Source: Nemertoderma westbladi (lineage: Eukaryota; Animalia; Xenacoelomorpha). From it: 64,000 nt of DNA. Both the position numbers and the translations under genes were made by a program. The notes below the pieces were generated by a model. The model ran no database searches. It had not been told where the DNA came from and worked only from the letters and a program-made list of their open reading frames with translations. The number at the start of each line of letters is the position of its first letter. The first letter of the stretch is position 1. The DNA is taken from the NCBI GenBank assembly GCA_032718475.1, contig JAUCBJ010006915.1:1-64000 (forward strand). The letters run 5' to 3'. Of this stretch, positions 3,225-59,892 are shown piece by piece.

Positions 3225-4777
3225 GAATTCCAGCGGGAAGAAAGGGGTGGATTTTTGAAATTAGAGGATGTGTACCTATTAATATCCAGGGAAGCGGTGG
3301 TGGAGACTCGATCCAACTACACTGACCAACACATTGTAGCAGAAGGAATCACCTTACCATCATACAACCGACAAAAACCCCAGACAACATCCACCAAGAC
3401 GGCCACTTACGCCACACCGACAGAAACCCGACAATTTTCGGACGGTAGTAAAGTATCCGCACCTATTGGGATCAAACAGACCAGACAGCAACTGAGTGCA
3501 GACTTTAGCGGTTGCCAATACTGCGAGCAGTTAGGCAAGCGGCATACCAGTCACAAGTTAAGAGGTTGTCGGCTATTTCGTGAGTTAAACTCGGAAGAAC
3601 GACGGCTACAGATACGGCCATTGGATTCTTGTTGGCAGTGTACGCAACACGGACACGTTCGCAAAGATTGCCCAAATACGGACACCTGTCCATCCTGTGG
3701 ACGCAACCATGACGGTTTGCTCCATACCGATAGTCATACGCCGACAAAACGCTTCACTAGGGAACACCCAGAAGCAGCAGCAAAATGCAATACCGCATAT
3801 AAGAATCGAGAATCGAGAACAACCCCAACTTTCGTGACACACATACGGGATTGTTTCCCGGAGCAGTCCGGATCTTCTGATGAGGAATTCGAGGACGACA
3901 ACGACAAGATGGAGACGAACAACCATCAATTGCGCTTCTGACGCCTGACCAACTAAAGGGATTTAGCGTAATTCCTGTCAAGATTACTGGCACAAAAGGG
4001 AGCAAACGGATTTACGCTATTTTAGATTCAGCCTCATCTCACAGCTATGTGGACGAGAAGGTAGCTGATGTCGTGACGGATCTCCGACAAGGTAAGAACG
4101 TCAAATACACTGTAAGTAGTATGCATGGACAACGTGCAATACCAGTGACACGAGTTAAGTTAAACTTAGACACTCTTCTTCCGAAATCGCAACATAGCGA
4201 AAGGGAGAGGTCTTTGTTACCCTTCAAGGATTTAACTTTTGCGGCCACAAAAGACTTTAGTAATCTAATGGGTCCAGTGCCAGAACAATCCTTAGAGGAC
4301 CGTAAGTATTTTAGACACCTTGGTGTACCTGAATGTCCTGTTAACTATAGATCAGTAGCAATGCTGATCGGGACAGATCAATTCAACTTACATCAAGTGT
4401 GGGAAACCAGACCATCGGTAGTCGTAGCAGGAATTGCATACGCCTGTCGAACTCCGATAGGTTGGTATACTCGAGCGCCTGTGCGCACACTAGATATAAG
4501 TGATGAGGAAGACGATGTACAAAGTACATGTAGTTTATTAACTACAACTTCGACTCATTCTTTTTCACACGACAAGGACTATACTACACTACGTTCGACA
4601 AAACACGACAACGTTACAAGTACGACGTGTGTAGCGAGTACGATAAGTCACAAAGAGCAGCCAATCCACAAGGTTAGTGTAGAGATTAAGAAGGAGCGGA
4701 GTCAGGCAGAGGATCCATCAACGATAGATGATAACGCCGGAAGGCTTGCGAGTCTACCTCAACCAATAACCTTATAA
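3225..4777 (+). pseudogene. gag: BEL Gag C-terminus (3 Cys/His knuckles) and aspartic protease, frameshifted
   Basis: CQYC..H..C, CWQCTQHGHVRKDC, CPSCGRNHDGLLH; protease YAILDSASSHSYVD at ~4012-4053 in another frame; ACRTPIGWY BEL motif. Confidence 0.9.
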
Positions 4778-4979
4778 TATATTCTTACAAAGAGCAACAC
4801 AACATTGGCCACCACTATACGATAACAAGTCTAACACTATTCCTAAGGACGCCGAAATTAAAAAACCAAAGAAAGGTAAAGCAAAGAAAAAGACAACGGC
4901 GAAACTTAAGAAGAAACCAAAGGCGAAATGGAAAAATATAACTTACAAAGTTAAGGCAGGAAGACTTGCGAGACTTTCT

Positions 4980-5270
4980 CAACCAGACGTATCGCCAGAC
5001 GGTCAACCAGTCATGTTACCAGACGATAAACCAGACGTATAGCCAGACGGTCAACCAGACATGTTACCAGACGATAAACCAGACATATCACCAGACGGTC
5101 AACCAGACATGTTACCAGATGATAAACCAGACGTATCGCCAGACGATCAACCAGACATGTTACCAGACGGTCAACCAGACATTTTGCCAGACATGTCACT
5201 AGACGTTTCGCCGGATGTTCCACGAAACATTTTACCAGACATTTCACAAGATGTTCTACCAGACATTAGT
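4980..5270 (+). repeat. 24/48-bp tandem repeat in the RNase H-integrase spacer of A
   Basis: Units ccagacggtcaaccagacatgtta / ccagacgataaaccagacgtatcg, encoding PDGQPDML-PDDKPDVS. Confidence 0.9.
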
Positions 5271-5653
5271 AACATAGTGACACATAGTAAAGCCGCAGTT
5301 TCCCTATTGGAGCGGCCTTCTATTGACAAAATACCAAACTTGACACCCTTGAGTAACCATAAGTACAGTGAAACCTCATGTATTACAGATGTGGGTAGTA
5401 CCTACGCAAATGTAAATACAGGTGTTACTTTACGCTCAAGAGACATACCAACCTTACAACCTACGGTGAGATCTGGGATTAATATCGGCACAAAATAAGT
5501 TTACCGAAACCCAGTGATCCCATAGAATTTAAACCACCATTAGGAATCGACACACAAAGTACTGACAATCAAGGTAAGAAGACGAAGAAGGACAAATTAC
5601 TCGTAAACCCGGACGGATCAACAGTCAACAAGGGAATACTTACCGGCGGACTC

Positions 5654-7234
5654 GTGGGCCCATCTAGTAAAACAAAACCTTCAAAATTCATCATTGACTT
5701 ACCTGATGACGTCATAAATACTTACGTCGACCGAATTGTAAACTTGACAGATTCTTGGACAAACGCGTGCCGAAAATTAGCGTGGATTGTACGTTTTGTA
5801 CAATACGTTAAAGGCAAACGCGACTTTACACGTCGACTTACATTGACTGAGATTGACAGATGTGAAATTAAGTTAATTCGCCATTACCAATTGCGATATT
5901 TCGCACGCGAATTCACATCCATAAGTCAAGGTCAACCAATCAAGTCGTCACCAATATTGAGTTGGAGTCCGATAATTTATAATGGCTTAATTTGTCATAA
6001 ATCTCGGCTTCAAAACATCGACTTTAATACTGATTTTAGATACCCGATAATAATACCACAACATCACGAATTACAACGTGCAATGATACTGGACGCACAT
6101 TTACATCTGAAACACGCTGGAAGACACCACTGTCTTTCATACTTACGTACAAAATTTGTATTAATTAGACCCAGTAAAGCGCTAAGTTCAGTGACACGTA
6201 TGTGTATTATTTGTAAGAAGGTACATTCTAGAATAAGTACCCAAGAAATGAGTGAACTTCCACAAGCACGACTACAGGCATTCAGACCACCTTTCACAGA
6301 GACTGGAATTGACTGCTTTGGTCCCATACATACGAAACGTGGACGTATACTAGTAAAACGCTGGGGACTGATTTTCACATGCATGTCCAGTAGGGCAGTT
6401 CATATTGAACGTGTGATGGATCTTTCCACCAACGCTTTTATACTAGCATTGCGGCGATTTATCGCTAGACGCGGACTAGTAAAATGCTTGTACTCAGACC
6501 AAGGTACAAACTTTGTTGGTGCTCGAAATGAAATTGCTAGAGCCTTTAAGAAATTAGATCATGATCAAATCTCAAGCAAACTACGTCCTTACAAGATTTT
6601 TTGGAAGTTTAATCCTCCAGATAGTCCATGGAGAGGCGGAGTCTGGGAGAGATTGATTAGATCTATAAAAACAGCCATGGCGAAAGTAATTCCAGTAAAC
6701 CACATCTTGACAGACGACCAACTGACAACATTGTTTGTTGAAATCGAGGCAATACTAAATACTAGACCAATAGTATTAGTACCCGATGACAAACAATCCC
6801 AGTTTGCTTTAACACCGGCACACCTGCTGATGCAGGCATCAACTTCATTAATGCCTATTTCGATACCAACAGAAAGCGATAGCTACGGTAGAAAAGCGTG
6901 GAAAATCACGCAACTACTGGCTAACAAATTCTGGGAAATATGGCAAAACCATTATTTGCCCTCTATTTCTGCCAGAACAACCTGGTACAACAATACTCGC
7001 GCTTTAAAGCCGGGAGATCACGTGCTGTTAGCAGAAGTGAATTTAAAAAGACGCTTCTGGATAACAGGTGTAATTTTAGACACACATCCATCTATGGATG
7101 GAGTGACAAGAACCGTGACGGTACGGACAATTGACGGTCGTACAGTAGACAGACCGACTCAACGTCTCGTACTTCTTGAAGAGACTCGAAACAAGTCTGG
7201 AGATTACAAGTCTCCAACTAATGTTAGTAAATAG
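5654..7234 (+). CDS. pol: BEL integrase (HHCC, DDE, C-terminal BEL domain)
   Basis: HLKHAG..CIICKK; TGIDCFGP; YSDQGTNFVG; WKFNPPDSPWRGGVWERLI; LNTRP; FWEIW..YL; RPTQRLVLLE. Confidence 0.95.
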   Translation: MGPSSKTKPSKFIIDLPDDVINTYVDRIVNLTDSWTNACRKLAWIVRFVQYVKGKRDFTRRLTLTEIDRCEIKLIRHYQLRYFAREFTSISQGQPIKSSPILSWSPIIYNGLICHKSRLQNIDFNTDFRYPIIIPQHHELQRAMILDAHLHLKHAGRHHCLSYLRTKFVLIRPSKALSSVTRMCIICKKVHSRISTQEMSELPQARLQAFRPPFTETGIDCFGPIHTKRGRILVKRWGLIFTCMSSRAVHIERVMDLSTNAFILALRRFIARRGLVKCLYSDQGTNFVGARNEIARAFKKLDHDQISSKLRPYKIFWKFNPPDSPWRGGVWERLIRSIKTAMAKVIPVNHILTDDQLTTLFVEIEAILNTRPIVLVPDDKQSQFALTPAHLLMQASTSLMPISIPTESDSYGRKAWKITQLLANKFWEIWQNHYLPSISARTTWYNNTRALKPGDHVLLAEVNLKRRFWITGVILDTHPSMDGVTRTVTVRTIDGRTVDRPTQRLVLLEETRNKSGDYKSPTNVSK

Positions 7235-7660
7235 TAAGGAGTTTACAAATAGATTTCCACGTACCTGTACACTGTAGTAAAGACAGCGGTAGAATTCCAT
7301 TGTCTTTATATGTGAACATTGAGGGTAGTACCCTTATGTGTCACATAGGAGCGGGATTTGTAGGTATAAGAAATGGAATTCTACTTGGAACTCACAATAT
7401 TGAGACATTTTCTAAATTTTAGACAATCCATTTGGATTTGAAAAATTTTTAAAATTTTCTCCAGTGAATAGATTTCAGGGTACAGTCGGGTGGAACTTAA
7501 AATTAGAGAAACAAGAGAATGGAAGACTCGCGAGCCTTTCTTAAATTTAATTCAATTTTACACAGTCTTGTTTCAATAAGTTACGTCAAATAATAGACTT
7601 CCCTATATTTATTACTAACTCTTGATTGCTTATTTTCTGATAATAGTTTGGGATCAAAAA

Positions 7661-7863
7661 GTGAGTATTTTAGACTCACAGCCAGTTTAGCCCAAATTCG
7701 TTTTTATTTCGGCAAAAATTTTAGATAAGAAACAGTGTGTCATTAAAGAAACCCTAGATCTTAGGCTATGGGTAGGAGGTTGGAGCGTTGTCGAGCCAAA
7801 GGGCAGACGAAAACTCTCACATCTCCTCACAACTAACAATAAACTCTGTTGTATTCCCTCTAG
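7661..7863 (+). promoter_or_regulatory. Predicted intron in the ORF3 leader of A
   Basis: AAAA|GTGAGT donor at 7661, CTAAC branch point at 7833, pyrimidine tract plus TAG at 7861-7863. Same signals at equivalent places in B (19190-18989) and F (52504-52318). Confidence 0.55.
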
Positions 7864-7894
7864 TAGCAATGATTATGTAACCATACTTCAAATA

Positions 7895-10800
7895 ATGGCG
7901 AAGGGGATACATGGAGAGCCGAGATGGGGATATGATATCCAAGAGGAAGCAGCAGCGCCATTCGAACGGTTTGGAGCTAAAGACTACACCATATTTGGTA
8001 TAAAGGATTTATCAGAGAGTACAGCGAAACTCGCAAAGACTAAATATGACTAGAACGTATTAAAGAGAAGGCAAAACGCGTTAAATGAAAGAATCGAAAG
8101 TTTACGCAAAACCTTCAATGAACTTTACCCGTACGACGCTTTATGTGATACGGGAGATATTAGCGAAGACCCCGATACCGAAATTAGTCGTTTGTATCAT
8201 ACCATGCAATACCTGAAGGCGCATGAACCTATGCCTGCGGTACGCGATGAATTCGATGGAATGCATCTTTACAGACGAACTCGAGGGGACGATAGAGAAA
8301 CGAAGGAAGCATTTTCAGTTTATAAACTTTATTATCAATGTGGTGCTTGTATGCGCGAACAACGAAATGCGATTCCGATGCGTTTGAATAAGGAAAATCC
8401 CGAACCGATATTGGCGCGGTGTTCGAACCATCAACAACTACGCTACCAGGAAGGAGGGTATCCTTTATCGAATCCATATCATTCATTCGCTATGTGTGGA
8501 CCAAAGGCGGGAGAAATTGTCGTTTACCCACCTAAGGTTGTTGAACCCGATGCATTTGAACTTGCGCTGGACGAGGCGACTCAGTCAACCCGCGAAAAGA
8601 AAGAAGCTCTTAGCCTATACAGAGCCTATAAGGCTTTCGAGAAAGGTGAGATGAAAGAATGGGGCGGAAGACTCGCGAGCCTGCCTACCTTACCATTGGA
8701 CGTCACACGATCAAACTTCAGCTAAGGAGATGACACCGGAAGTTTTCGAAAGTATAAACTTTGCTCAAAACGTTATTCAGAGACTACAGATTGCATCCCC
8801 GGAAAGGACAAGAGAAATGCAACCGTATAGTACTTCGACTACGAAACCATTGAGTACGACACTCAATTTCCCTATTAGTATACCTACGACGTATGAAATA
8901 CCTATTGTGGATCATCCGGAAATCATTTCAAACTTAGAGTTTCTTCCTGCAGTCGTTCTAAGCGATATGGTTAAGATATATGATTTATGTAGACATATTA
9001 CGCAAAAGGTCGTGCATAATGTTCCACCTCATATTCAAGACTTTAGGGAACTGGATAGAGCTGGCGCTGATATAGCTCCGAGTAACCTGAAAGGATATTT
9101 AACCAGAACAATTCGCTTATGGATTGGAACAGGAACCTTTGAGTCAGATACAGATATTGCTGCGGACTGGCAAGGTAAAGTCATTTGTTTCGAGGACGAG
9201 AAAGACATCGAGAAGATTTGGCAACCTTCGGAAGAATTACTGGACGAATGGAATAGGACGTTTAGATCGTTTCAAGAAAATGGTTACATGTTTTATGACA
9301 ACGAGGGCGGCAGCCATCAGCAGAGTCTGACCTCCAAGACTATACAAATTAGAGCGGCAGACGGAGTTTTGCACGTTTTCAGTAGACAAAGGAGCGACAA
9401 GCGAATGCCGATACCTCCAGGAACTACCAAGCGGCACCATTTCATCACTAATATAGTAAAGAAGATGGACCAGGCTTGCAATATCGATGCTAGAATGTTA
9501 CCAAAGATGGTGAGAAATATGATTTTAGATAACACTGTTGTAAAGATTGGATCAGGAGTAAGAGAGGACTTAATTAGCGACTTCGCCGGCATGTCGGACA
9601 GTGACGACCGATTACCGACACCTTACGTCGACACTCGACCTCTTATACTGTGGTCTATAGAACAAGGATACTTCCGTGAGTATGATACTCAGAAAACCGG
9701 AACTGGATACATTTCCTATTTGATGTTTAATTGGGATTACAAGGAAAGTAAAAGAACAAAGTATATCGAAACGTATGGAGAAGGTGATACTCCGGATATA
9801 AATGAGTTTGAATCACAGCTTAAATGGAGAGGATGCGTATATTGGGCTATTACTTCACCTCCAAGAGCAGTATTACAATATTATTTAGCGATAGAGTCAT
9901 CAGTGAATGTTTGCTTAGTCACCGACATTGTGTCTCGGACTCTTAAAAGACATCCACTTTGTCTCGGAGAAGATCATACATTCTACGCGGAAGGGAGAAT
10001 TCATACCGATGTGTTTAGACGGTTTCTCGAACCCTTCTTCAATTCCGACGCTCAGTGTAATGCCTTCACTCGAGCAGGATTTAGTATATTTCGAGACGTG
10101 TATCTTCGCTGTGCGGGATCTCTTATCGAAAGACCATCTATGTTTACATTGTTACCCTATGAAGGAGAACGTATCATGGAGCTTACGGACAAATCACGGC
10201 AGACGCGCGCGCCTATCGGTCACTTAGGTGATGATTTCGAAGTAACAACGATCATTGACGATCCTTTAGAGGAACTTCTTGAGATTGAAAGGTACCTCCC
10301 AAAGAAATCTCAGACGGAGATTCGACAACTAGAAGCAACAGATGCTGTAGTTTGCATACAACCTTCTGAAACATACCAACCTATCGATCCAGACGATTAT
10401 GACTATAGTGTGGGAGGAAGCGCTCGACCCATTGGAGATCTTATATATGAGCGAGTGTGGTACCCTGCTAATACGATGTGTGGTAAATGTGGCGTCGCTG
10501 GACATCATTCGACAAAGTGCAGTGGAAAGCACATTACTACGACTCAACTAATCTGTGGATGGTGTGGAGATCAAGGGTCTCATACATTTTATACTTGCTG
10601 GAGATTTATGGCTCAATGCACATACTGCAATATAAAGGGACATCGAGCATCTGAATGCCAATTGCGAGACATACCTTACGAACACGAATCTGTAAAACTC
10701 GTGCGAAAACTATTTGATGATTGGGAATATTTGGCTGACGAACATGTATCGGCGCAAAGAAGATGATTCCCGATGAGAGCGCATCTTGGATTGTGGGCGG

Positions 10801-11609
10801 TAAATCCCCAAACTATGATGTCAGAAGGATATATCTCAGCTATGCCACAATATGACGAACTTATCGAGGTAGTTGATATTTTGCCTCACGATAGTGGATT
10901 TCGAGTTGTGCGCGAATACTTGTTACAGATTCACCCCGACAATAAGAATACATGGAACTTCCAGAAAGTAGTTAATCGTATCACATATGGTGAATTTGAT
11001 CATTTCCGAACGGAAAAGCGGAACAAGGGAGCTTGGTTAACCGTCGCATGGGCGTACCGAGCCACGTTCTACCATAAACGTATACGAGCGAGCGTATTCG
11101 AGGAAGAGGAGGTCCTAGAGGCGACCAACATACCAGCTACTCCGGTCGCGCCGTCTGCACGTCACCCTCGGGAGGACAGACAGCATAGGATCATAAGGGT
11201 TCAGAAAGTGGGCCAACAATTAAAGAAAACTATCAATGTTGAAGAACGAAGGGGATACGAACCGACTATTCGAATTACTCGAGATACGGTGTCGCTTCCC
11301 AGAGAACCGCAAGGAGGATCGGGACATATACCAGCTGATCAAAAGGGGGCGCAAGCTTCTCTTGGGTCTGCGTCGTCCGCTTCCCGCGCGTTCCCAGACG
11401 TTTTACCAGCGGTAGACACAACAGATCGGTCACGAGGAATCGGACGAGGATTTGGGATAACTAAGAGACGAATATGTGAGGAAATGGTCGTACCATCTCC
11501 CAACGTCCAAAGTAAACCGGTGACTCGCCCCACAAGTCCTATATCACGAGCTAAGTCACCGATACGCAGTTTTCGAGGACGCGGCAGGGCTCGATCCGCT
11601 AAGCGGTAA
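7895..11609 (+). pseudogene. ORF3 of A: DEDDy 3'-5' exonuclease plus CCHC zinc knuckles (~1200 aa, two stops, one frameshift)
   Basis: ATG 7895 (MAKGIHGEPRWGY, homologous to B and F starts); stop 8051; frameshift ~8690; stop 10764. Motifs FYDNEG, TIQI, LPKMVR..VKIGSGVREDL, YVDT, W..SPP..QYYLAIES; three CX2CX4-5HX4C knuckles; RGRGRARS tail. Confidence 0.85.
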
Positions 11610-11705
11610 ATAAAGTGTTATATATAAAAGGACTAATTATTCCGAACTCGTAAACTCATGTAAAGCGGGAAGGAAGGAGTGGACGGAAGACTCGTGAGCC
11701 TTTCT

Positions 11706-11990
11706 TTGTATTGTTTATGTAAATTGTATTGTTTATGTAAATTGAATTGTTTATGTAAATTGTATTGTTTATGTAGATTGTTTTGTTTATGTAAATTGTA
11801 TTGTTTATGTAAATTGAATTGTTTATGTAAATTGTATTGTTTATGTAGATTGAATTGTTTATGTAATTTGTATTGTTTAAAATTTATATTACTCTAAATT
11901 TATGCAATTTATATTGTTTTAAATTTATGCAATTTATATTATTCTAAATTTATGCAATTTATATTGTTCTAAACTTATGTATTTGTATTG
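11706..11990 (+). repeat. 18-bp tandem repeat in the 3'UTR of A, degenerating into ~22-bp units
   Basis: (ttgtattgtttatgtaaa)n followed by aatttatattgttctaaatttatgc-like units. Confidence 0.9.
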
Positions 11991-12595
11991 TTCCAATTTT
12001 GAAATTCAGAAAGTTTTATATTTAGAAGGAATTTATATTTGAAAGATTTATATTTTATATTTGAGATGCCAAAAGAGTTTATATTGTTCTAAACTTATGC
12101 AAAAGATTTATATTTAGAAAGTGCTATATTTGTAGTCATTCCAAACTTACGCAATTTATTGTTTCGAATATTATGCAATTTATATTTTATAAAGAAGCAG
12201 TATTTGTATTCGCAGTAAATAGAAGGCAAGAGCAGACGGAAGACTTGTGAGCCTTTCTTGTGACTTATTTGAAATTATTCCGAACTTATACAATTTGTTT
12301 TATATTTAAGTAGTATTAGTATTTGTGATTGTTTGAATTTATGCAATATTTGAGATGCAATAGATTTAATTTGGTGAATTTAATTTAGATTTATATTGTA
12401 CTTACTTAATAAAGCCTTAAATACGTAAAGTTTGAATCTGTAATTATTTTGTATCGAATCATTATGTAAAGGTATTATTGTTGAGATTTAATTTGTAAAT
12501 ATGTAAGTACGTCCCAAGTATTCCATAATTTGATTTAGTATTGGTGAAAACCGTATATTTTATGCACGATAATATCCTGTTTTCATGGAGCGGTA

Positions 12596-13352: not shown

Positions 13353-15076
13353 CCACAATATTCATTCTTAAGTTATTCACCCATCGCCTGAAAGGTTAGA
13401 CAGCGTTCGATGCCTTGCTACCTAAGTGTAAGACCAAAGATCGAAGGTAGAGGTAGTGACACGCTGTGCGCTAAAAATTACATCTAGGGACTGTACTGTC
13501 TTGATTCAGGAAAACCCGCAGAAGACCTTCACATTCCTACGGGAGGAAGAGGAGATCAGGCAGAAAGATACTAGTACACAGATAGGACGCAGGCACACCA
13601 GTACAAAGCATACACATTGGTAGGGTACAGCAAACTGTACGCCTAACTCTTGCTAAGTATAGGTGCGTCGGTGGCTGTTTGTAGTACAACGGTGTCCATT
13701 TGCGTTAGAACTTGTAGGCTAGAGGGTTACTGTGTTTTACCTGAATTAGGATTGTACCGTTCAGGCGGTAGGGCAGTTTATTACTAGGCGCAAAATAAAT
13801 TGAGGCTATTAGGGATACTAACATCTAATGTGTCCCCGCCGACATTCTGTTAGGAAGTTGCCGTGCCCATCTAGGCAACCAAAATTCTAGATAGGACGCC
13901 AGGCTAGCTATTAGTAACAGTACGCCTACTGTAGTAAACTAACACATTTATTCTTAGTATTAGGGACCTGGTAAATTAAATTGCCGAATTCTGGGCATAG
14001 TATTAACCTTATGCCTGAATTTGAGTTCTGGAAATACACAAAAGGGGAAGGAGCCTTATCATTCGTGAGTATTGGACCTACAAGCTACAAATTTAGAATA
14101 TTTGTAAAATGCACACCGGACCCAGTAATTATATATGTGAAGGATCTAAAACCGATTTTGACCGTTAGAATCAAGACACACGCGCGTTAGAAATTATTTA
14201 CACCTCAAAATATATAAAATAATTTTTGTCCGTACTGCGCTTTGCCCGCTGGTTATACTTTTCTGCACCTAGCTAGCGACTCTCTATCCCAACCATATAA
14301 ATCACACCGCGGCAAAGTATACGAGCGCTTTAGTCCATCAGTGAGTCAGCCTGATTTTAGGATTCGCTGCGCGGGATTTTGTTTCATCGAAGTTTGTCCG
14401 TTTGTAGACTGTTTTCTGCCTCACCGGTTATAAGAGACCGATACTGCAATATATATTCGCTTACTTAGAGTTTACTGTTTTGGTGAGAAGGTCGGATTAT
14501 GTTTTGATTCACAAACTTTACAGTAGGATATTGCAGGGTATTTTGTTACTGTCTCTTCAAATACAGTAAGTAAGACTGTTTTCACCAATCGAAATACAAA
14601 CTATTTACAAATACTTCTAAATCTACTGGTGGGGCCTAAAATATAAAATAATCACTATCTAATTATTGCATACTTAATATTGCAGGTACGGCGTAAATAC
14701 AATCCATCATACATACAAATACAAATTTACCAATCAACTTTAGTGCATAAAATACAAAAAAAGCTTTCGGTTATCAAGATAAACAAATTAAACAAATCAG
14801 AATAAAATAAATCAAAACAAATCGAACAAATAATTTCAAATCTTTCAATAAGTTTTATATATTGTAAATATACATAATAAATTCACTAAATTAAATCAGT
14901 CCGAAATATAAAATAAACATAATGCGCTAATAATCTTTCAAATAAGTCTTAAAGTGTCCTCCTGACGATCTAAAAGTTCGTCCTGCTGGTCTGGATATCT
15001 TCTCCTGAGCACTAATTGCTAACGGTAGGCTCGCAAGCCTTCCTTCTTTATCTTGCTCCTCCAAAACCAACGTCCG

Positions 15077-15215
15077 ATATAAAACCCCAAATATAATATC
15101 CAAATATAAAATATCCAAATATAAAATATCCGAATATAAAATGTCCAATATAAAATGTCCAATATAATATCCAATATAACATCCAAATAAAATATCCGAA
15201 TATAAATATCCAAAT
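15077..15215 (-). repeat. ~15-bp tandem repeat in the 3'UTR of B
   Basis: (aatataaaatatcc[a/g])n on the + strand, flanked by two palindromic motifs. Confidence 0.85.
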
Positions 15216-15251
15216 CGGTAGGCTCGCAAGCCTTCCTTTCTTCTCGCTTTC

Positions 15252-18200
15252 CTATTCCTTGGCCGAACGGGCTCGTCCACGCCCTCTAGTACGACTGGGT
15301 GGTGGTCGAGGTCGAACTGGACTCGGACTTCGGTGTCGAGTTGTCGGTGGTTCCAAAACGCTAGGAAAGGGGATGACGGGAGTTTCGCACATCCGTCGTG
15401 CGCTCAGTCCTCTAAATCCTCGTCCGATTCCAATCGTCGGCTTAACATCGGATCGAGTTTCTACAACGCTGGGAGGAAGTCGAAAGGGTGGGACCGTTGG
15501 GTGGTTCCGGTAAAGCGTATCCTGTCCCTCTGCGTGGTTCTCTAGCAAGGGAAACCGTGCCCCGAGTCATCCGGATTTGCGACTTCGATGTCGTCCTCTT
15601 GGCGACATTTACTACTTTCTTTATCTCTTGTCCGGCCTTTTGGGCTCTAAGTATACAAAGTTGTGGATCATCCTGTGGGTGACGCGTCTTTTCAGCTAAC
15701 GGCGTGGCTTTGAAGCCAGTCTCACGCAAAACGTCCGTCTCGTCTAGAATACACGAGGTTACGCGTCTGTGATAAAATGCGCTCCTGTATGCCCAAGCTA
15801 TCGAATGCCAGGCTCCTCGATTCCGCTGTTCAACTCGCAATTTGTCGAATTTCCCGGCGGTAATCTTGTTCACCGTAGTTTGAAAGTTCCAAGTGTTCTT
15901 GTTGTCGGGGTGTACCTGTAGAAAGTAGTCCCGCACAACCTTAAATCCGCTATCCAGTGGCAATATATCCAGCACCTCCAAGAGTTCGTCGTATTGAGGC
16001 ATAGCCGACATCGTATCCTTCCTTCGACATTATGAGAGGGTTTACGGCCCTGAATCCCAAATGTGCTCTCATAGGGAAACGGCGTCGCTGCGTTGATACA
16101 TGCTCGTCTGCTAGATTCTCCCAATGGTCGAATAGCTGTCGAACGATTTTAACTGACATGTGCTCATAGGGGACGTCTCTAAGTTGACATTCGGATGCCC
16201 TATGGCCTTTAATATTACAATACGTGCACTGCGCCACGAAACGCCAGCAAGTGTAGAAAGTGTGCGAACGCTGATCCCCGCACCAGTTGCATACCAAGTC
16301 CAGTAGAGATATGTGTTTCACTCCGCATTTCTTTGCGTGGTGGCCAGTTGCCCCGCATCTGCCACAAATAGTGTTGGCAGGGTACCAAACTCGCTCATAG
16401 ATAAGATCTCCGATGGGGTGAGCGCTACCGTCCACGTGATAATTCTCATCATCCGGGTCAGTCGGTATGTTCGTCTCCGTGGGTTGTACACAAACCATGG
16501 CATCGCTTTTCTCCAACTCGCGTATCTCAGTTCGCGTCTTCCTCGGAAGGTTCTCCTCTATCTCTATGAGTTGCCGCAACGGTTCGTCTATTATCGCCAA
16601 CTCGGTCGGATCAACATCGTCGTGATGGGCGGTAGGCTCGCGAGCCTTCCAGGATCCTTCCGGGCCTTTGAATTCCGCGTGGCATTCCCCGTCATAGGGT
16701 ACTAACATTAACATCGACGGTCTGTCGACTAGGCTTCCCGCTTGAGTGAGATAGACATCCCTGAAAACGCTAAGTCCCGCTCGCATGAAAACTTCGCAGT
16801 GCGCATCGGTGTTGTAAAAGGGTTGGAGAAATCGTCTACATCAGTATGCGTCCTTCCTCCGTCGTAAAAGGCATGTCCTTCACCGAGAGAAAACGGAGGT
16901 CGCTTTAGGGTCCTAGACACTACATCGGCGATGAAGCAAACGTTGACGAAGATTCTATCGCCAAATAGTATTGTAAGATTATTCGTGGAGGTGAAGTAAT
17001 CGCCCAGTACACGCAACCTCGCCACTTTAGCTGTGACTCGAACTCGTTTACGCCGGGGATATCTCCCTCTCCGTATACGTCCGTGTATTTGCTCCTCTTA
17101 CTCTCCTTATAATCCCAACTGAACACTAGATATGAGATATAACCCGTCCCAGTTTTTAGCATGTTATACTCCCTAAAATATCCTTGCTCAATAGCCCAAA
17201 GCAACAATGGTCTAGTATCCACGTATGGCGTAGGCAATCGATCCTCTTCCGTGGGCATCCCTGCGAAATCGCTAATAAGGTCATCCCGTACACCGGATCC
17301 GATCTTGACGATGCTCTTGTCCAACACAACGTCTCGCACGGCCTTTGGCAACATCCTAGTTTCTATGCTACAAGCCAGGTCCATGGATTTAACTATCCGT
17401 TTTATCATCGAGGGTCTTTGCGTCATTCCTTCCGGCATAGGCATCTTTCTATCGCTCCTCTGTCGGCTGAAGACATGTAACAGGCCATCTGGTGCTCTAA
17501 TCTGTATAGTCTTCGAAGTGAGGCTTTGCCGGTGGCTTCCTCCTTCATTATCGTAAAACATGTAACCATTCTCCTTCAGAGATCGGCTAGTCATGTCCCA
17601 ATCGTTGAGTAAATCGTCGGTAGGGTTCCAAATTCTCCCAATTGACTTTTCATCATCGAAACTAATAGGTTTACCGGTCCAATTGGTCGCGATATCGGTG
17701 TCGGTCTCAAATGTTCGGAGTCCGATCCATAATCGAATCGTTTTCGTCAGATATCCTCGCAAGATATAAGGTGCGATATCCGTCCCCGCGCAATCCACTT
17801 CCTTAAAGTCCGTAATATGTGGAGGCACGTTGCGTACGATTTTCTGAACTATTGTTCTACGCAACTCGGCTGACTCTAATACATCACTATAGGTAACCGG
17901 TGGGAGGAAATCCAGGTTCGAAATGATCTCCGGGTGTTCAACTATAGGAATCTCATAAGTTGTCTCCTTCCGGGTCGGTATACTAATAGGAAAGCTAGTT
18001 GGTCTCGCAACCGGTACTATCGTTCCAGCAGAATGGGGTTGAGGTTCTCGCGTCATCTCGACATGAGGTATCTGTAGTCTCTGCGACAAACGCTGAGCAA
18101 AGGTGATACTATCGAAGAGCTCGGGTGTCATCTCCTTAGGTTCGGTTTGATCGTGGGATATCCAATAGAATGGTAGGCTCGCGAGCCTTCCGCCGAACTC

Positions 18201-18951
18201 CTCGATCTCGCCTTTCTCGTACGCCTTGTATGCCCTGTAGAGGCTCAAAGCTTCCCGTTTCTCTTGCATCGACTTATTAGACTCGTCCACTACCATGCTG
18301 TAGACGTCTGGTTTGACTAATTTGGGTTAGTAAAAAAAGATCTCACCCGCGTTCGGTCCACTCATCTTAAACGAATGATACGGATTCGTCAAAGGGTATC
18401 CGCCTTCCTGGTAACGTAGACTTTGGTGGTATGAGCATCGCGCTAATATCGGCTCGGGGTTCTCCGAGTTCAACCGCATAGGAATCGCGTTGTCTTGCTC
18501 GCGCATACATGCTCCACATTTGTAAAACAGTTTGTATATGGAGAACGCGTCCTTTGTCTCTGGATCCGCTCCTCGAGCGCGTCTATAAAGATGCATTCCT
18601 TCGAATTAGTCTCTGGCTGCAGGTAAGGGTTCGTTTACCGTCAAATATTGCAGCATATGATATAATCGGCGGATCCTCGCAAATGTCACTAGCGTCGCAT
18701 AATGCATCGTAAGGATATAACGCATTGAACTCCGCGCGTAATTCCTCCGTTCTTTTGTTATAAGCATCCAATCGCTGTTTAGTCACATTCGGGTCCGCCT
18801 TGGATTTAGCGAGCTTGGCTGTACTCCTAGCCATACTCTCCACTCCAAACACACTAAAGTTTTTAGCTCCATAACGATTAAACGGCGCCTGGTGCTCTTG
18901 TTCCTGCGTAAACCCCTGACGGAACTCCTTATAAATCTTCTCCTCCATCAT
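15252..18951 (-). pseudogene. ORF3 of B: DEDDy exonuclease plus CCHC knuckles, several frameshifts
   Basis: ORF pieces 18583-18951, 18327-18596, 16920-18296, 15950-16786, 15442-16011 and 15252-15548 align in order to A ORF3 (FYDNEG, VKIGSGVRDDL, QYYLAIES, CTYCNIKGHRASEC, RGRGRARS). Confidence 0.85.
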
Positions 18952-19689
18952 ATACGCGTATATATGGTTACATATTGTTACGTTTCTACTAGATGAAGCA
19001 CAAAATAGAGGTTAGATGTGAGGTGACTTAGAGTTTGTCGGCTTTTGGCTCAACTTTGCTCTAAAACCCCAACCCATTTGCCTAATGACTTCGGGTTCGT
19101 GTGATTTCGCACTGGCTCCTAATCCAAAAAAAAAATGTGCCGATAAAAAACGAATTCTGGGTAAACTAGCCGCGAGTCTAAAATACTCACCTTTTAATTT
19201 CCCAAACTACATTCCCAAAGAAATAATGCAGTCGAGAATTAATTCGGTCTAAATAATAGTAGACACGACTACGTAGAACAAGGCCGATTTTCTTTTCCAA
19301 AAAAAATTTATCGGTAGGCTCGCAAGCCTTCCATCCGCTCTTGTCCTCCCCAATTTTAATTTTTATCTAGCTGTATTCTAGAATTCGCATTCACTGGAGA
19401 ATCATTTTTCTTAAATTTAAATCCAACTGAATGGATTTGTCTAATAATTTTTGAAAAATTGTCTCACTTGTGGGTTCCAAGTAGAATTCCATTCCTACTG
19501 TACACACAATCCCGCTCCTATGTGATACATAAGGGTACTACCCTCCATGTTCACATATAAAGACAATGGAATTCCACCGCTGTCTCTATCTACAGTGAAG
19601 AGGATTACAAATGCACATACAGTAATACAAAATACTAAATTACTAAAATACGGTAGGTCTATGTGGCGGCCAACAAAGGTCCCACATCT

Positions 19690-20825
19690 CTATTTACTAA
19701 TATTGGGTGGAGATTTGTAGTCTCCTGTCTCGTTTCTAGTCTCCTCAAGGAGCACGAGATGTTGTACAGGTCTGTCTACGGTACGTCCGTCGATAGTCCT
19801 TACAGTAACTGTCCTTACTACACCAGATGTAGGGTGCGTGGTCAAAGTGACTCCAGTCAGCCAAAACCGTCTTTTCAGATTGGCTTCAGCCAATAAAACG
19901 TGGTCACCGCGTCTCATACATTGGGTATTAAGATACCAAGAGGTTCTGGTCGAAATAGAGGGCAAATAATATTTCTGCCATATTTCCCAGAATTTATTTG
20001 CAAGTAATTGAGTGATTTTCCAAGCTTTGTTACCGTATCCGTCGCTATTAACGGGTACCGAAATGATGGGCAACAATGTCGTCTGCGCCTGCATAAGCAG
20101 GTGCGCTGGTGTCAAGGCAAACTGTGCGTCGTTATTGTCTGGGATCAAAGCGATCGGTCTAGTGTTTAAAATCGCTTCGATTTCTATTAGTAACGTCGTC
20201 AGTTGGTCGTCTGTCAATATGTGTTGCGTCGGTATTACTTTAGCCATAGCTGTCTTTATTGAGCCAATCAGCCTTTCCCAAACGCCGCCTCTCCACGGAC
20301 TGTCTGGAGTATTAAAATACCAAACAATTCGGTGAGGACGTAGTTCCTCGGAAATCTGGTTTTGGTCCAACTTTCTTAAAGCTCTGGTTATTTCGTTCCG
20401 TGCACCCACAAAGTTTGTCCCTTGGTCACAATAAATGGATTTGACCAATCCACGTCTAGCGATAAATCGCCGTAAGGCTAGGATAAAGGCATTGGTGGTT
20501 AAATCTGTCACACGCTCTATATGGACAGCTCTGCTGGCCATGCAAGTGAAGATCAATCCCCAACGTTTTACCTGTACCCTTCCGCGTTTCGCGATTATGG
20601 GTCCAAAACAGTCTATCCCCGTCTCAGTGAAAGGGGGTCTAAATGCCTGTAATCTCGCTAGTGGTAGTTCACTCATATCTTGGTGTCCTATCCGTGCGTG
20701 CACCTTCATACAAATCATACAGTTCCGTGTTACCGAACTCAGTGCCTTACTAGGTCTAATCAGTACAAACCTCGATCGTAAGTGTGATAGACAGTGATGT
20801 CTACCCACGTGTTTGAGTTGTACAT
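19690..20825 (-). CDS. pol: BEL integrase of B (N-terminally truncated)
   Basis: CMICMK, TGIDCFGP, YCDQGTNFVG, WRGGVWERLI, DRPVQHLVLLEE. Confidence 0.93.
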
Positions 20826-21030
20826 TAGGGCGGTGCGTTTTTTACTTTTTTTTCGATTTCATTGTTCTACCGGTGCACAAAAGTTGCCAAATGGTAAAAA
20901 AATAAGGCAAAAAAAATTTCTTCCAATTTCGTCTATATCTTCACGGATCCCAAGAGGGTTGAAATTTTGTGCCATCGCGATGCACCATAATGAAATTTAT
21001 AACAATATAACACATTGATGAAAGATCAAT
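20826..21030. mobile_element. DNA transposon terminal fragment at the B/C junction
   Basis: Begins TTA-GGGCGGTGCG, AT-rich and non-coding; integrases of both B and C break off at its edges. Only one end is recognisable. Confidence 0.45.
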
Positions 21031-34107: not shown

Positions 34108-37100
34108 TTAAGGCGTACATGGTGCAGTTGGGGCTGTCCCTGGCTCCGAAAACTCTTACCTGCATTTGGTAAGTTTCTGGCGGAAGTTCTAAATTTCCGT
34201 CCGGATACCAAAGAAACTGTAAACTGTCCCTGTCCCGCTCCAATGCCTTAACCTGGTGAAACATGGCCTCTACGTCACAGGTGAAAGCCACTTTGCGTTG
34301 TCTAAAACGCATTAGGACTCCCATGAGGTAATTATTCATATTCGGCCCGTCCATCAATTCGCTGTTCATAGACATCCCTTGAGTCGCCTCAAAGCAAGTG
34401 GGTAATTGTTAACGAGCTTAGGTTGTCCATTGCGCCACAACATGCCAACCTCATAGTGGCCATTCGCGGTCCGGCGAATGGTATCTCTCATAATATTTAA
34501 TGACCGTTTTTCCTGTTCTGACATAGCGGTCTCGTAACTACCGGGTTCTGCTGAGTCCTGTTCCAACCATTGAATGGTCCGTTCAGTCAGCAGTCAGTCA
34601 AGCGCTGCTTGCACTGCGCCATGGTCCTCGTCCACGTCTTCGTCCGCTGCGGTGGCTAGTGTCAATGTGTCTGGTAGGCTCGCAAGCCTTCCGGTGTCAC
34701 TAGTCGGCGTCGAATCGTCTTGTGGCGGTTTGACAACCTTTTGATCTGTCGGTAGGCTCGCAAGCTTTCCAAGATCAATGACCGGTGTCGAAGCCTGGTG
34801 GGTGGGGTCAATGACCTTCGGATTTTTTGGTAGGCTCGCAAGCCTTCCAAAATCCTCGTTCATCGAGTCATCCACAGCAACAACCCTTTGGCCTTCGGTA
34901 GTCAATACAACCTGGTTTACTGCAAGTAGTTATAAGTCAGAGGCCCGTATGGTCATGTCCAGATCAGTTACGTCAGTATCGGTGGCGTCTGCGTTAGCGA
35001 TGCAAGTCTGTCGTAGTGCAGTCTGTACAATTGGACCACGGTAGTGTGAATGAGAATTATCTATAGTGTTAGTCAATAAACTACACGTACTCAAAACGTC
35101 GTCCTCCTGGTCACTTACCTCTAGTGAACATACTGGTGCTCTAGTATACCAACCTATGGGAGTTCTACATGCGTAGGGGTTGCCCGCTGTAATAACAGAT
35201 GGGCGTGTCTCCCATACCTGATGTAAGTTAAACTGGTCTGTCCCAATTAACATCGCAATAGAATGATAATTAACAGGACATTCCGGTATTCCAAGGTGTC
35301 GGAAATACTTAAAATCTTCCGGTGATTGCTCTGGCACAGGGCCAAGAAAGTTACTAAAGTCCTTCATAGCTGCAAAGGTTAAATTTCTTACCGGAAGTAA
35401 TGAGTGCTCCTCCTTGCTGTGTTCCGCTTTGGAAAGAAGAGTGTCTAAGGTTAGTTTTACTCTTGTCACTGGGATCGCTCTCTTACCATGCATGCTGCTT
35501 ACAGTATACTGAGCAGTCTTACCTTGACTCATGTCCGTAACCACGTCGGCTACTTGTTCGTCGACATAACTATGTGATGACGCAGAGTCTAAGATAGCGT
35601 ATATATGCTTGCTCCCTCGGGTTCTGGTAATCTTTATAGGAATCACTCTAAACCCTTTCAATTGGTGCTGTGTGAGGAGTGTTACCGATGGCTGTTCCTC
35701 ACCCGCATGCACGTAAAATGTGTCGTCTTCCTCCTCGTCCTCGTCCGATGATCCCGATTGATCCATACAATCCGCGTAGAAAGTACGAACCTCGCGCGCG
35801 GCGAACGCTCCTTATAAAGCGCGTCGCATCTAGCCGCTTTATCTGGATGCTCTCGTCGAAAGCGTCTGGTCGGAGTATGACTGGTTGTGCAAAGTAACGC
35901 GTCATGGTTACGTCCACACAGAGGACATGTATCGTCGCTCGGGCAATCCTTCCGGACGTGTCCTGGCTTCGTACATCTCCAGCAAGATTCCAAAGATCGA
36001 ATTTGAAGTCTTCTCTCTTCGATTCCTAACTCCTTAAAAGCGCGACATCCACGTAGTTTATGTCCGCTATGGTTTCTGCCGTTCCTCTCGCAGTATGAGC
36101 ATCCCACAAAGTCTGCCGGCAACTGTTGTCGTGGCTGCGTGGTGCCGATAGGCGTCAGAACTTTAGAAGTCTCAGTAGGGGTGGCGTAGGTAACGGCTTT
36201 CGCATTCGTTGGAAACGGTTTAGTCCGAGTCGGCGCAGAAATAGCTATCCCTTCTGCCGCAATATGGTGATCAGTATAGTTCGATCGAGTCTCGATCACG
36301 GCCTCCCATGAAATCAGTTGGTAGACGTCGGTGAGTTTCAGTAGCCCGCCGGCTTCTTCACGCTGGTACTCGATGCGTCGCCATTCTCGTCGAAGTCGAT
36401 GATGAAGTCTACCGATTATTCGAATGAGAACTGTCGGTGCGTTAGCGTATTCGAGTTGTCCAATGGACCATAAAGTCCCTATAGCGTTTTTAATTTCGTC
36501 CGTGAGTCGTAAAAGGTCGATCAGTTTCAAAATGCTGTCTCCTCTGCAGAGGTCTTCAATAATGGATTTAGCCATGGCGACGTTACCTCCGTAAATCGAA
36601 TATAAACGGTCGTATGCCAACTCAAATGCATCTGGAACACCGATAAAGGTTTCCGCTAATCGTTTCGGCTCACCAGACAGGACTTGGAGTAAGTGTTAAA
36701 CTTCTCCGTTGAGGTGAAAGTGCACTTAGCGATCTGGGACTCTACGTAGTCTACCAGTGTTCGCCAGTGTTTCGCGTTGCCAGAGAACTTCGGCGGTTGC
36801 TGTGCCGGTAATCCATGTCTAGCCGCGAATTTCACAATCTCGCTAACCAAATCCAACTGTCCGCGTCCCTGTTCGGTGGTGTCGTCCAGTTGTTCGTGAT
36901 CGATCCGACGGTTGCGCTTCGAGTCGCTCTTCGAGTTGAGCTAGTCGGTCTGTCATCTCGGTGAACTGTTTGGCGCTGATCGTTTCCACTGGTTGCAACG
37001 TGGGTTTCCGAAAAGGTGTTTCTCGTGGAGGATTGTCGATGTAGGGGTTCGTCGATCTCTCCTCCCGTTTGTAATCAGCCTCTGCTGCCGCTCCAGTACG

Positions 37101-42283: not shown

Positions 42284-42284
42284 T

Positions 42285-42302
42285 TGGGGGGATTACTATT
42301 GC
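42285..42302 (+). promoter_or_regulatory. Putative primer-binding site of E (primer not identified)
   Basis: TGGGGGGATTACTATTGC one base after the LTR end; identical in the inverted copy at 47018-47035. Confidence 0.55.
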
Positions 42303-48033: not shown

Positions 48034-48829
48034 TATGCTCCAAGGGAAATCATGCAATGTTTCCCTCCAATTGTAGAAGAGTGTTAGGCGATGTATACAA
48101 AATAAAATAAATCTCTTTCAAATAATCTAAATATCTTGATACTATACTATTTACAAATATTGCTATAGATATTGCATAATGAATTGCATACAAATTAAAT
48201 TTACAAAATATTATCTCTCTCTCAATGTTAACGATTATTACATACAAATTAAATTTACAAAAATACTGTTTCTCATTCGTTCTACATAATGATTACTACA
48301 TACAAATTAAATTTACAAAATACTTTCAAATTATAAAAATTTTGCTAGGGTAGGTGAAGGGAGTAAGCCAAACCCGCAGGTTTGTCTCCCCAATCACCTC
48401 CTTCGCCTCTCTCATAATATAAATCCAAATCAGTGCGACTAGTGTATATGAGTCAAGTCGGATATTTACAAATGCTACAATATACATCAGAGCGACGATG
48501 ATGTATATATCTAGAGTCTGTCGCCCCGTGATACAATGCATTACTGACCCGCTCCTGGGTTATTCGGGCTCGCTCCTCTCTTTCGCCCCCTACCCAGATA
48601 CACCAATCGTCCTCCAGTTGACTCCGTTGATGTGGTTCGTGAGGCGTCACTCCCCGGAACCGGCGACGATGTTCCCCGAGCTCCGACAGATTCCCAGCTC
48701 GTGCTTCTCCCTCGGCCTCGTCCTGATTGTCGTGCTCCTGTGGTCGCTTCCGCCAACTCTTCCTTCTGCAATTGCACCCGCGCCTTCTCCGACGCCCCCT
48801 GCGCCTTGCGTTGCAATCGCTGAGCCTCT

Positions 48830-54488: not shown

Positions 54489-54493
54489 GTTCC

Positions 54494-54754
54494 TCTTCTA
54501 TTTCTATTTGTTTGTTGATCAAAATATAACATTAGGCTAGGCTTATAATAATATCTTTCATATCTAAAAGCATAATGTATATAAGCAAAATAATAATATC
54601 TGAAGCCCGTAGGCCTACTGTATTACAGTACTAAAGTTATATCATTAAGTAGGCTAATACATACATAATAAAAGTATATTGGTTACCGGTAGGTAATTCA
54701 ATAATCACCACTTCTATATATTTAATATGTAGAGGGAAATTCAAATACAGTACA
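54494..54754 (-). repeat. 3' LTR of G
   Basis: Appears identical to 59627-59887 by eye. Confidence 0.97.
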
Positions 54755-54777
54755 TCTCCATTCCCCGCTAAAGAGTT

Positions 54778-59887: not shown

Positions 59888-59892
59888 GTTCC

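Follow-up and report, generated by a model that had tools for sequence, protein, structure and literature searches.

DEDDy-type third ORFs (ORF3) are carried by the bdelloid LTR retrotransposons Juno and Vesta and by the Terminons (PMC5408684; PMC6431247). The rotifer ORF3s were reported without demonstrated activity and a function was proposed for them (PMC5408684). An earlier note on this DNA had mentioned such extra ORFs in both bdelloid and nematode elements; the bdelloid precedent stands (PMC5408684), and no nematode precedent was found in the literature searched. Third genes at the same position in the Belpaoviridae are F-like in Roo, gB-like in mosquito elements and phlebovirus-like in nematode Atlas, all of them membrane fusion glycoproteins (PMC8742986, PMC13524379, PMC9094657). 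The case described here bears on how LTR retrotransposons of animals persist against small-RNA silencing and on the roles of non-envelope third genes.

The ORF3 of the BEL/Pao elements described here, found in one 64-kb stretch of DNA (the window), resembles that of Juno, Vesta and the Terminons in being a non-envelope DEDDy-type gene that follows pol and, in the frames scanned, lacks a membrane segment (PMC5408684; PMC6431247). Going by the published descriptions, it is set apart from them by its BEL/Pao host, by a tetrad of D-E-D-E versus the rotifer DEED, and by its size (~1,240 aa), putative N-terminal zinc finger, three knuckles, basic tail and hairpin array. Unlike the Belpaoviridae glycoproteins, it is predicted to be a soluble nucleic-acid protein. 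No report of a DEDDy ORF3 in BEL/Pao was found in the mostly open-access literature covered.

ORF3 lies downstream of pol in three BEL/Pao elements

ORF3 is a sense-strand frame of ~1,240 codons that is colinear in three diverged elements, A, B and F:

7895..11609, plus strand: ORF3 of element A, 3715 nt
15252..18951, minus strand: ORF3 of element B, 3700 nt
48541..52261, minus strand: ORF3 of element F, 3721 nt, with a further in-frame ATG at 52279

The earlier note had placed these frames in the env position, and motif order is indeed identical in 3/3 copies, each after pol. Its limits for A and B hold; the F frame ends at a stop at 48541, not at 48830. Pao-type Gag and Pol domains found by Pfam also bear out its choice of BEL/Pao as the host element. 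The pol regions are as follows:

5483..7234, plus strand: integrase and DUF5641 pol end of A; RT and RNase H are absent from this copy
19690..20841, minus strand: integrase and DUF5641 pol end of B, which starts within integrase
53027..63716, minus strand: gag-pol of F (DUF1759, Peptidase_A17, integrase, DUF5641), with a Gypsy element nested at 54494-59893

The ORF3 ATG lies 660-770 nt past the DUF5641-bearing pol end in each element (DUF5641 E values of 1.5e-21, 3.5e-17 and 9.5e-18 in A, B and F). A and B carry DUF5641 and H2C2, and their integrases are 53-79% identical to that of F or to each other. The F domains (DUF1759, E 6e-10; Peptidase_A17, E 3e-38; DUF5641, E 1e-17) are colinear across the Gypsy insertion. 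All BEL copies are truncated or nested, and no BEL LTR pair was found within the window.

All three ORF3 copies are interrupted by stops and frameshifts. A has a stop near 8051, a frameshift near 8655-8725 and another stop at 10764. B has several breaks, and F has two stops within the exonuclease domain or immediately ahead of it, with frameshifts further downstream. DNA copies without the exonuclease region exist, with joints from 8040-8050 to 10030-10171; they count against the model favoured below.

The N-termini of all three copies are hydrophilic. Over A, B and the leading two thirds of F, Kyte-Doolittle means of 19 residues peak at 1.39, in line with the proposed lack of a TM segment, and the signal peptide and TM anchor typical of a viral envelope glycoprotein were not found in the same regions. 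A Pfam search and the hydropathy scan likewise gave no likeness to a fusion glycoprotein. Envelope and chance readings of ORF3 were rejected on the hydropathy scan, pN/pS and the hhalign match.

A remote DEDDy-type exonuclease domain

By profile and motif comparison, the middle domain of ORF3 is a remote WRN/EXD-type DEDDy exonuclease. Its positions are:

9240..9950, plus strand: DEDDy-type exonuclease domain of A (hhalign, HMM ranking, pN/pS)
9291-9308, 9543-9569 and within 9843-9896, plus strand: ExoI, ExoII and ExoIII YxxxE of A
16947..17603, minus strand: exonuclease domain of B, unbroken as far as ExoIII
50132..50872, minus strand: exonuclease domain of F, interrupted by one stop
A 9291, B 17558, F 50815: FYDNEG (ExoI)
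A 9543, B 17306, F 50539: K[IV]GSGV..D (ExoII)
A 9627, B 17222, F 50455: VDT
A 9843, B 17006, F 50236: W-x12-Y-x3-E (ExoIII)

A phmmer search of 1.84 billion representatives returned two matches to ORF3. One, P0003, is the single homolog found with ORF3's architecture. The other, the coffee protein P0002, matches the knuckles only and was set aside. Word-based protein searches gave no match beyond the query itself. Scans of viral, metagenome and prokaryote loci and tblastn of plasmids and phages, collections in which animal transposons are under-represented, yielded no ORF3 homolog.

A four-sequence alignment was compared by hhalign with 78 WRN-like proteins, a PF01612 reference set with a WRN match at E 1e-19 (scans of 2 + 1 members). 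The match had a probability of 93.7 (P 1.9e-7) over 121 columns that cover ExoI, the IQI strand, ExoII and the subsequent helices; ExoIII was left unaligned. The probability did not exceed 1.3 in sixty column shuffles and was 0.24 for the reversed alignment. With the three window copies alone the probability was 65 (P 5.9e-5; shuffle maximum 9.2). In a blind ranking of 853 targets with the WRN-like HMM, the six best places went to ORF3 chunks from B, A, F and P0003, with weak E values of 0.04-0.5. For the P0003 model in Atlas, 10/10 structure rows came from PF01612 clusters. Its TM by target was 0.73 and 0.70 to small 3'-5' exonucleases, below the bar at which Atlas names a family, and its best feature match was a euglenozoan exonuclease plus CCHC cluster. 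These results uphold the DEDDy-type assignment of the earlier note.

Direct searches gave little. Pfam did not find the exonuclease in any ORF3 copy, PDB sequence searches returned no exonuclease match, NCBIfam gave a weak DnaQ match only (E 0.08), and PHROGs gave nothing useful. AlphaFold2 models of the domain built from one and four sequences had pLDDT 32 and 36 and uninformative folds. Foldseek with these low-pLDDT models found no match at E <= 0.001, and the best VIA hit with a low-pLDDT model had Z 3.0 (EXD2 third, Z 2.8, rmsd 7.0, 79 aligned; none at Z >= 5). A middle domain without the DEDDy fold, in an unrelated structural or envelope-like protein, would fit the lack of a Pfam or PDB sequence match and the uninformative folds. 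The controlled profile-profile match, the blind ranking, the P0003 structure rows and the lack of a hydrophobic segment in the regions scanned for hydropathy all argue against this possibility, which we regard as very improbable.

ExoI reads DNE in A, B and F and DTE in P0003, in register with the DTE of the WRN-like profile. The ExoII Asp is also kept, with KIGSGVRED aligned to KvGvai.DD. ExoIII reads Y-x3-E in 3/3 window copies versus Y-x3-D in P0003 and 75/78 references, and its spacing is W-x12-Y versus W-x11-Y-x3-D in 75/78 references. Because Glu replaces this Asp, catalytic activity of ORF3 stays putative. The domain is best filed as DEDDy-derived, its ExoIII carboxylate being kept, yet non-canonical.

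A probable zinc finger, knuckles and basic tail

The exonuclease is flanked by the following features:

8183..8686, plus strand: N-terminal domain of A, with CxxC-x23-CxxH at 8339-8431 (alignment)
A 8339, B 18518, F 51817: start of CxxC-x23-CxxH
A 10479-10658 (plus strand), B 16366-16187 (minus strand), F 49596-49423 (minus strand): three CCHC knuckles
11370..11609, plus strand: basic RG/SP-containing tail of A

CxxC-x23-CxxH is likely a zinc finger, and the N-terminal domain had no significant Pfam or PDB match. The knuckles begin about 190 aa past the exonuclease and are followed by a conserved domain common to ORF3 and P0003. Both the three knuckles and the RG tail reported earlier were located in A, B and F. 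R+K makes up 18-23% of the tail in the three copies, and the RG tail of F lies in ORF 48541-48909.

Purifying selection on the exonuclease domain

Strong purifying selection was found between families, the comparison for which the earlier note had named dN/dS. Between A and B, pN/pS is 0.17 for the exonuclease and 0.18 for the integrase; between A and F it is 0.41 for both. Among the rows listed for other copies, 32/40 variants are synonymous, versus 26% expected. Purifying selection on the exonuclease domain equals that on the integrase. With these elements, capture of a DEDDy ORF3 extends to BEL/Pao and is old and as constrained as integrase.

As an alternative, ORF3 could be an active counter-silencing exoribonuclease. 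It would degrade or mis-trim small RNAs of the host or the precursors of these, leaving the hairpins described below to serve, for example, Gag packaging. The ORF3 carboxylates are conserved over a saturated synonymous distance, and the domain is nearest the WRN/EXD/mut-7 branch among the small reference sets tried (hhalign probability 93.7; RNase D 2.0, PolA 0.75). Overexpressed TbRND, an exonuclease with CCHC knuckles, depletes small guide RNAs (PMC7797062). The Glu at ExoIII weighs against such an activity. So does the chemistry of the target, since 2'-O-methylation usually makes the 3' ends of animal piRNAs exonuclease-resistant. Egalitarian retains all DEDDy residues without needing them (10.1101/2025.08.03.668247). 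We consider a counter-silencing nuclease unlikely.

The parallel divergence of ORF3 and integrase would also suit a protein packaged in the particle that proofreads or trims cDNA 3' ends before integration, as has been proposed for Dada exonucleases (PMC3706591). WRN-type homology, nucleocapsid-like knuckles and the basic tail agree with action on DNA. This reading leaves the hairpin array unexplained, and ORF3 is not a pol domain but a gene of its own, probably expressed by splicing. Most BEL elements replicate without such a gene (PMC8742986). Action on cDNA is improbable in our judgement.

Splice motifs and a family-specific hairpin array

Splice motifs precede the ORF3 ATG in all three elements:

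7646..7666, plus strand: splice-donor motif GTTTGGG..AAA[AG]/GTGAGT of A, 234 nt upstream of the ATG
19190 (B, at -239) and 52504 (F, at -243), minus strand: the same donor motif
7833..7866, plus strand: CTAAC branch-point and YAG acceptor motifs upstream of the ATG of A, predicted from sequence
19015/18989 (B) and 52336/52318 (F), minus strand: branch/acceptor motifs, predicted from sequence

The A and F spacers align locally with a score of 50, whereas 300 shuffles peaked at 32. Element C has AAG/GTAAGT at 39244, upstream of gag. ORF3 protein is likely produced from a spliced mRNA, judging by these motifs.

A total of 21 sense-strand hairpins with YGYG loops, mostly YGCG, recur in A, B, C and F:

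4739..12258, plus strand: six YGYG-loop hairpins of A, loops at 4747, 4967, 7529, 8674, 11693 and 12246
15024..19332, minus strand: five hairpins GGAAGGCT-YGCG-AGCCTACC of B, loops at 19324, 18183, 16642, 15228 and 15035
34673..38352, minus strand: six further hairpins of this type in element C
48369..63951, minus strand: four hairpins of F, stem [C]AAACC-YGCG-GGTTTG, loops at 63947, 51482, 49888 and 48378
52587-52600 and 60051-60064, minus strand: two degenerate hairpin sites of F

Watson-Crick stems of at least 5 bp capped by YGCG number 14, versus 0-1 in each of 30 shuffles. The stem is swapped between families at homologous positions, with pairs 1, 3 and 4 differing on both sides. Element C, the 5' part of A's sister, has hairpins but ends before its ORF3 position; element G has no hairpins, and its 3' end is not visible in the window. 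Since ORF3 and the 3' UTR contain hairpins too, these would not on their own mark unspliced RNA. Rfam and ARAGORN searches found nothing. Both the predicted splice motifs before the ORF3 ATG and the family-specific hairpin array are new here. Neither was part of the earlier note, and both point to recognition of the element's own RNA.

A palindromic DNA site accounts for the repeat data equally well. ORF3 would then use its N-terminal zinc finger as a sequence-specific transactivator or anti-silencer for its own family, like VANC, whose targets differ among related transposons (PMC5735166). The repeats are near-palindromes built on a CpG core, their flanks are family-specific, and the basic tail might act as a nuclear signal. 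RNA pairing is imperfect in family A, where pair 3 is an A-C mismatch in 4/6 copies; across pairs 1-5 there are two sense G-U pairs versus five sense A-C pairs. Folding of eight 46-nt hairpin windows gave z of -1.7 to +0.8. The loops speak for RNA: the sense strand has TGCG 12 times, CGCG seven times and CGCA never, so that the asymmetric loop is sense-oriented in 12/12 cases, among copies that are not independent. Zinc knuckles and DEDDy domains, moreover, usually act on single-stranded substrates. A DNA-site role is decidedly unlikely.

We tentatively favour a model, somewhat likelier to be wrong than right, in which a spliced mRNA yields ORF3, which attaches to RNA of its own family through the repeated YGCG hairpins and there trims or shields RNA 3' ends. 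Its task would be to stabilise the element's RNA, secure its correct ends and direct it to export or packaging. Splicing would have to occur and the hairpins to work as RNA; their reader would be ORF3, not Gag or a host protein, and the active site with its ExoIII Glu may still bind metal. A more elaborate version, which we hold doubtful, is a 'complex' BEL/Pao retroelement whose multiply spliced, knuckle-guided DEDDy nuclease would read the family-specific YGCG hairpin array, spread over coding and non-coding RNA of the element, as a self/non-self code that co-evolves between families and would let the element shelter or route its RNA in the face of host silencing.

Comparison with known systems

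In the favoured model of own-RNA binding, the hairpin array is a candidate cis target for ORF3, and two hairpin types in two families permit a swap test of knuckle-stem preference. If cognate preference were true, ORF3 and its array would form a nuclease-based counterpart of Rev/RRE or VANC in an animal retroelement, and would make a compact RNA-protein pair that is orthogonal. VANC/VANDAL likewise combines a transposon accessory protein with short motifs that are repeated and specific to the family. VANDAL belongs to the plant DNA transposons, its targets are DNA and binding has been demonstrated (PMC5735166), whereas binding by ORF3 is putative.

The role would be that of CERV for Cer1 of C. 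elegans, performed by a TbRND-like module of knuckles and exonuclease. CERV is made from a spliced mRNA, derives from an ORF in the env position, has a Cys cluster and acts on the genomic RNA of its own element (PMC10309623). ORF3 shares the env position and Cys clusters, and its splicing is predicted from motifs. Unlike ORF3, CERV shares gag exons, and the word 'exonuclease' is absent from that paper (PMC10309623).

Egalitarian of Drosophila also has a DEDDy domain, which recognises RNA stem-loops with bulges, the one in the I factor retrotransposon among them. It is a host protein for which no knuckles are described, and its signals are 40-65 nt long versus the 20-nt hairpin here (10.1101/2025.08.03.668247). 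TbRND, like ORF3, has a DEDDy exonuclease followed by tandem CCHC knuckles, which bind its RNA substrate. TbRND is a cellular, mitochondrial protein with the canonical ExoIII Asp, and with four knuckles about 30 aa past the exonuclease versus about 190 aa in ORF3 (PMC7797062). Their likeness is one of shared architecture, and common descent of the fusion is only a possibility.

Pol-linked ORF3 in nested BEL/Pao elements

The window holds nested LTR retrotransposon fragments. Pfam identifies Pao-type domains in four elements (A, B, F and G) of BEL/Pao, a metazoan group (PMC8742986) whose presence points to an animal host, and places a full Gypsy pol at 54892-58868. In each of A, B and F the pol stop is followed, 660-770 nt on, by the start of a 3.70-3.72 kb sense ORF, ORF3.

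948-2648 (+): 566-aa open frame, cold-shock domain (Pfam CSD, E 1e-8) and further similar-looking repeats
4777-5483 (+): about 700 nt in place of RT/RNase H in A, with two hairpins and a 24-nt tandem array
7895-11609 (+): ORF3 of A
12723-12790 (+): 3' region of A, resembling tRNA A/B boxes by eye; no ARAGORN or Rfam call
13128-13352: apparent tail-to-tail joint of A and B, with a 111-nt tandem duplication
18951-15252 (-): ORF3 of B
20851-30400 (-): G, a fourth BEL element, integrase 48% identical to that of A; truncated against B
34673-38352 (-): hairpins of C, the 5' part of a sister of A
41335-47979: foldback-like long inverted repeat, arms of about 2.8 kb (91-96% alike), centre of about 1.3 kb; no Pfam match of note
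52261-48541 (-): ORF3 of F
54494-59893 (-): young Gypsy nested within F pol, 267-nt LTRs (99% identity), 39-nt tandem array near its 3' end

Judged by alignment, F is a single element cut in two by the Gypsy, the F sequences flanking the insertion both being matched by the pol end of A. A is without RT and RNase H and B begins inside integrase; no BEL LTR pair was found in the window. Contig depth over 4777-5483 is the same as over the remainder of A; a multi-copy, RT-less family retaining integrase and ORF3 is therefore possible. The 948-2648 frame is probably low-copy, since its contig depth is low relative to A.

A tblastn search of the window with the unbroken 703-aa stretch of A matched only B (62-69%) and F (38-45%), and the N- and C-terminal pieces of ORF3 are likewise colinear across the three elements. 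All motifs listed in the earlier note were found in the same order in 3/3 copies, and its spans do contain the motif-bearing ORFs, except that the end it gave for F was wrong and lies at 48541. Stops and frameshifts break ORF3 in all three window copies. No hydrophobic segment was found, as 19-residue hydropathy is at most 1.39 in A, B and the first two thirds of F.

Probable exonuclease-type domain of ORF3

Scans of Pfam and of PDB sequences detected no exonuclease in ORF3, and the sole NCBIfam match of ORF3 is DnaQ (E 0.08), over ExoI. A phmmer search of 1.84 billion proteins gave two matches, including P0003, which has the entire exonuclease-knuckle-downstream module in common with ORF3 (24% identity, BLASTP E 1e-13). 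P0003 is an unnamed 558-aa protein from an ENA contig of 7460 nt; it has a canonical DEDDy tetrad and the same three-knuckle module and downstream domain, without the N-terminal domain.

Bacterial WRN-like exonucleases gathered by motif (120 loci, 78 usable) served as an independent reference. Two scanned members are PF01612, and one matches WRN, mut-7 and EXD2 structures. When the reference HMM was run on 853 six-frame targets, the top six were ORF3 chunks and P0003, with individually weak E-values. Alignment of A, B, F and P0003 against the 78 references by hhalign gave a probability of 93.7 (P 1.9e-7, single comparison), pairing DNE with DTE, IQI with LQL, the ExoII Asp, and then VD plus a helix. 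Sixty shuffles gave at most 1.3, RNase D 2.0 and PolA 0.75 (both small sets), and six-member WRN subsets 31-82. For the P0003 model, 10/10 rows in the Atlas, a protein cluster and structure resource, came from PF01612 clusters, under its naming bar; for the A domain the best named feature match was PF01612 at 0.81, a lead only. Our own AlphaFold models of the domain were too poor for use, and fold searches with them gave no match at E 0.001 or below in Foldseek or at Z 5 or above in VIA. The hhalign score, its shuffled control, the HMM ranking and the Atlas rows of P0003 support the DEDDy-type domain proposed in the earlier note, and the middle domain very probably has this fold. A middle domain of some other kind, with the empty Pfam and PDB searches on its side and the hhalign result against it, is highly improbable.

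Both ExoI and ExoII have the canonical form. In 3/3 ORF3 copies ExoIII reads W-x12-Y-x3-E, versus W-x11-Y-x3-D in P0003 and 75/78 references, and it sits after an insertion left unbridged by hhalign. Retention of its carboxylate over such distance suggests that ORF3 may bind metal. Egalitarian, however, is reported to keep the full DEDDy set while needing it neither to bind RNA nor to function (10.1101/2025.08.03.668247). A domain of this type could also belong to a small-RNA counter-silencing factor, counter-silencing being one of the roles named in the earlier note, which we consider unlikely, or to a cDNA processing factor, which is improbable.

Selection and copy number

A-B synonymous sites are saturated or nearly so. 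A-B pN/pS is 0.17 in the exonuclease domain, 0.14 in the knuckles, 0.22 in the N-terminal domain and 0.45 in the tail, with 0.18 in integrase; for A-F it is 0.41 in both exonuclease and integrase. The exonuclease values track those of integrase, so that ORF3 and pol have diverged together. The dN/dS check proposed earlier gives exonuclease ratios that are not near 1. Among the exonuclease-domain variants listed from other copies (40 of 105), 32/40 are synonymous, where 26% would be expected (P 2e-12), and none is an indel. By these substitution patterns, ORF3 is a genuine gene under selection.

Summed contig depth of A and B was 10^4-10^5 in three DNA runs and a few hundred to a few thousand in a fourth (three studies); single contigs near the window start had depths of about 20-250. 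This suggests that A and B are present in many copies, summed depth itself not being a copy number. Joints in DNA contigs (8040-8050 to 10030-10171; 8773 to 10972) mark deletion derivatives without the exonuclease part of ORF3, the former retaining the knuckles.

Predicted splice motifs and probable hairpins

The pol-ORF3 spacers of A and F are unalignable except for a block of about 60 nt centred on AAAAA/GTGAGT, scoring 50, where the best of 300 shuffles scored 32. The B-F spacer score of 31 was reached by 4/300 shuffles. This donor motif lies 234 (A), 239 (B) and 243 (F) nt upstream of the ORF3 ATG; downstream of it, just 5' of the ATG, stand CTAAC and then YAG. C, 64-65% like A in gag and protease, has AAG/GTAAGT upstream of gag. 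ORF3 mRNA is predicted to be spliced. A second CTAAC plus AG occurs just 5' of the conserved donor (7615-7660 (+); 52555-52505 (-)), which suggests two introns ahead of ORF3 with a short non-coding exon separating them.

GGAAG[GA]CT-YGYG-AG occurs six times in A, five in B and six in C, always in sense orientation (26 two-strand matches versus 0.17 expected), and is not found in F. F instead carries four [C]AAACC-YGCG-GGTTTG hairpins, plus two that are degenerate (11 two-strand matches versus 0.57 expected). G has no YGCG hairpin and the Gypsy one chance-like stem. Places match between families in the spacer, about 20 codons past LYRAYK in ORF3, and in the 3' UTR; the hairpin past the exonuclease domain is at a matching place in B and F. 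Of the five inner pairs, the first, second and fifth form at all 21 sites, the third at 16 and the fourth at 20; in three of the five, both bases differ between families. The asymmetric sense-strand loop is TGCG 12 times and CGCA never. UGCG and CGCG loops are similar to the UNCG/YNMG tetraloop class.

Two observations speak against the repeats working as RNA: family A hairpins contain A-C mismatches, and none of the folding z-scores obtained is significant. The repeats are probably RNA hairpins, with DNA sites a lesser but appreciable possibility. If they were DNA sites, ORF3 might be a DNA binder like VANC (PMC5735166), a distinctly unlikely reading. A protein-hairpin code is itself doubtful.

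Comparison with known systems

DEDDy ORF3s as such are already known: they are described in Juno and Vesta, LTR elements of bdelloids, and in Terminons (PMC5408684, PMC6431247, PMC5718144, PMC6338049), and a DEDDy domain is described in Dada DNA transposons (PMC3706591). The ICTV profile of Belpaoviridae gives only env-like third genes (PMC8742986), and PMC3118150, PMC13524379, PMC6086898 and PMC7998251 nowhere mention an exonuclease in their main texts. We found no DEDDy ORF3 in BEL/Pao in the literature searched; Repbase, subscription papers or supplements may already record one. New here are the way the domains are arranged, the Glu in ExoIII, the splice motifs and an array of hairpins specific to each family.

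Read jointly, these features would be explained most simply if ORF3 were a regulatory protein for its own element's RNA, a view that we hold tentatively, at somewhat below an even chance. Parts of this own-RNA reading have precedents: in TbRND, CCHC knuckles C-terminal to the DEDDy domain bind RNA and help cleavage (PMC7797062); in Egalitarian, stem-loops are read by the DEDDy domain (10.1101/2025.08.03.668247); and in CERV, a spliced LTR-element gene in the env position acts on its own genomic RNA (PMC10309623).
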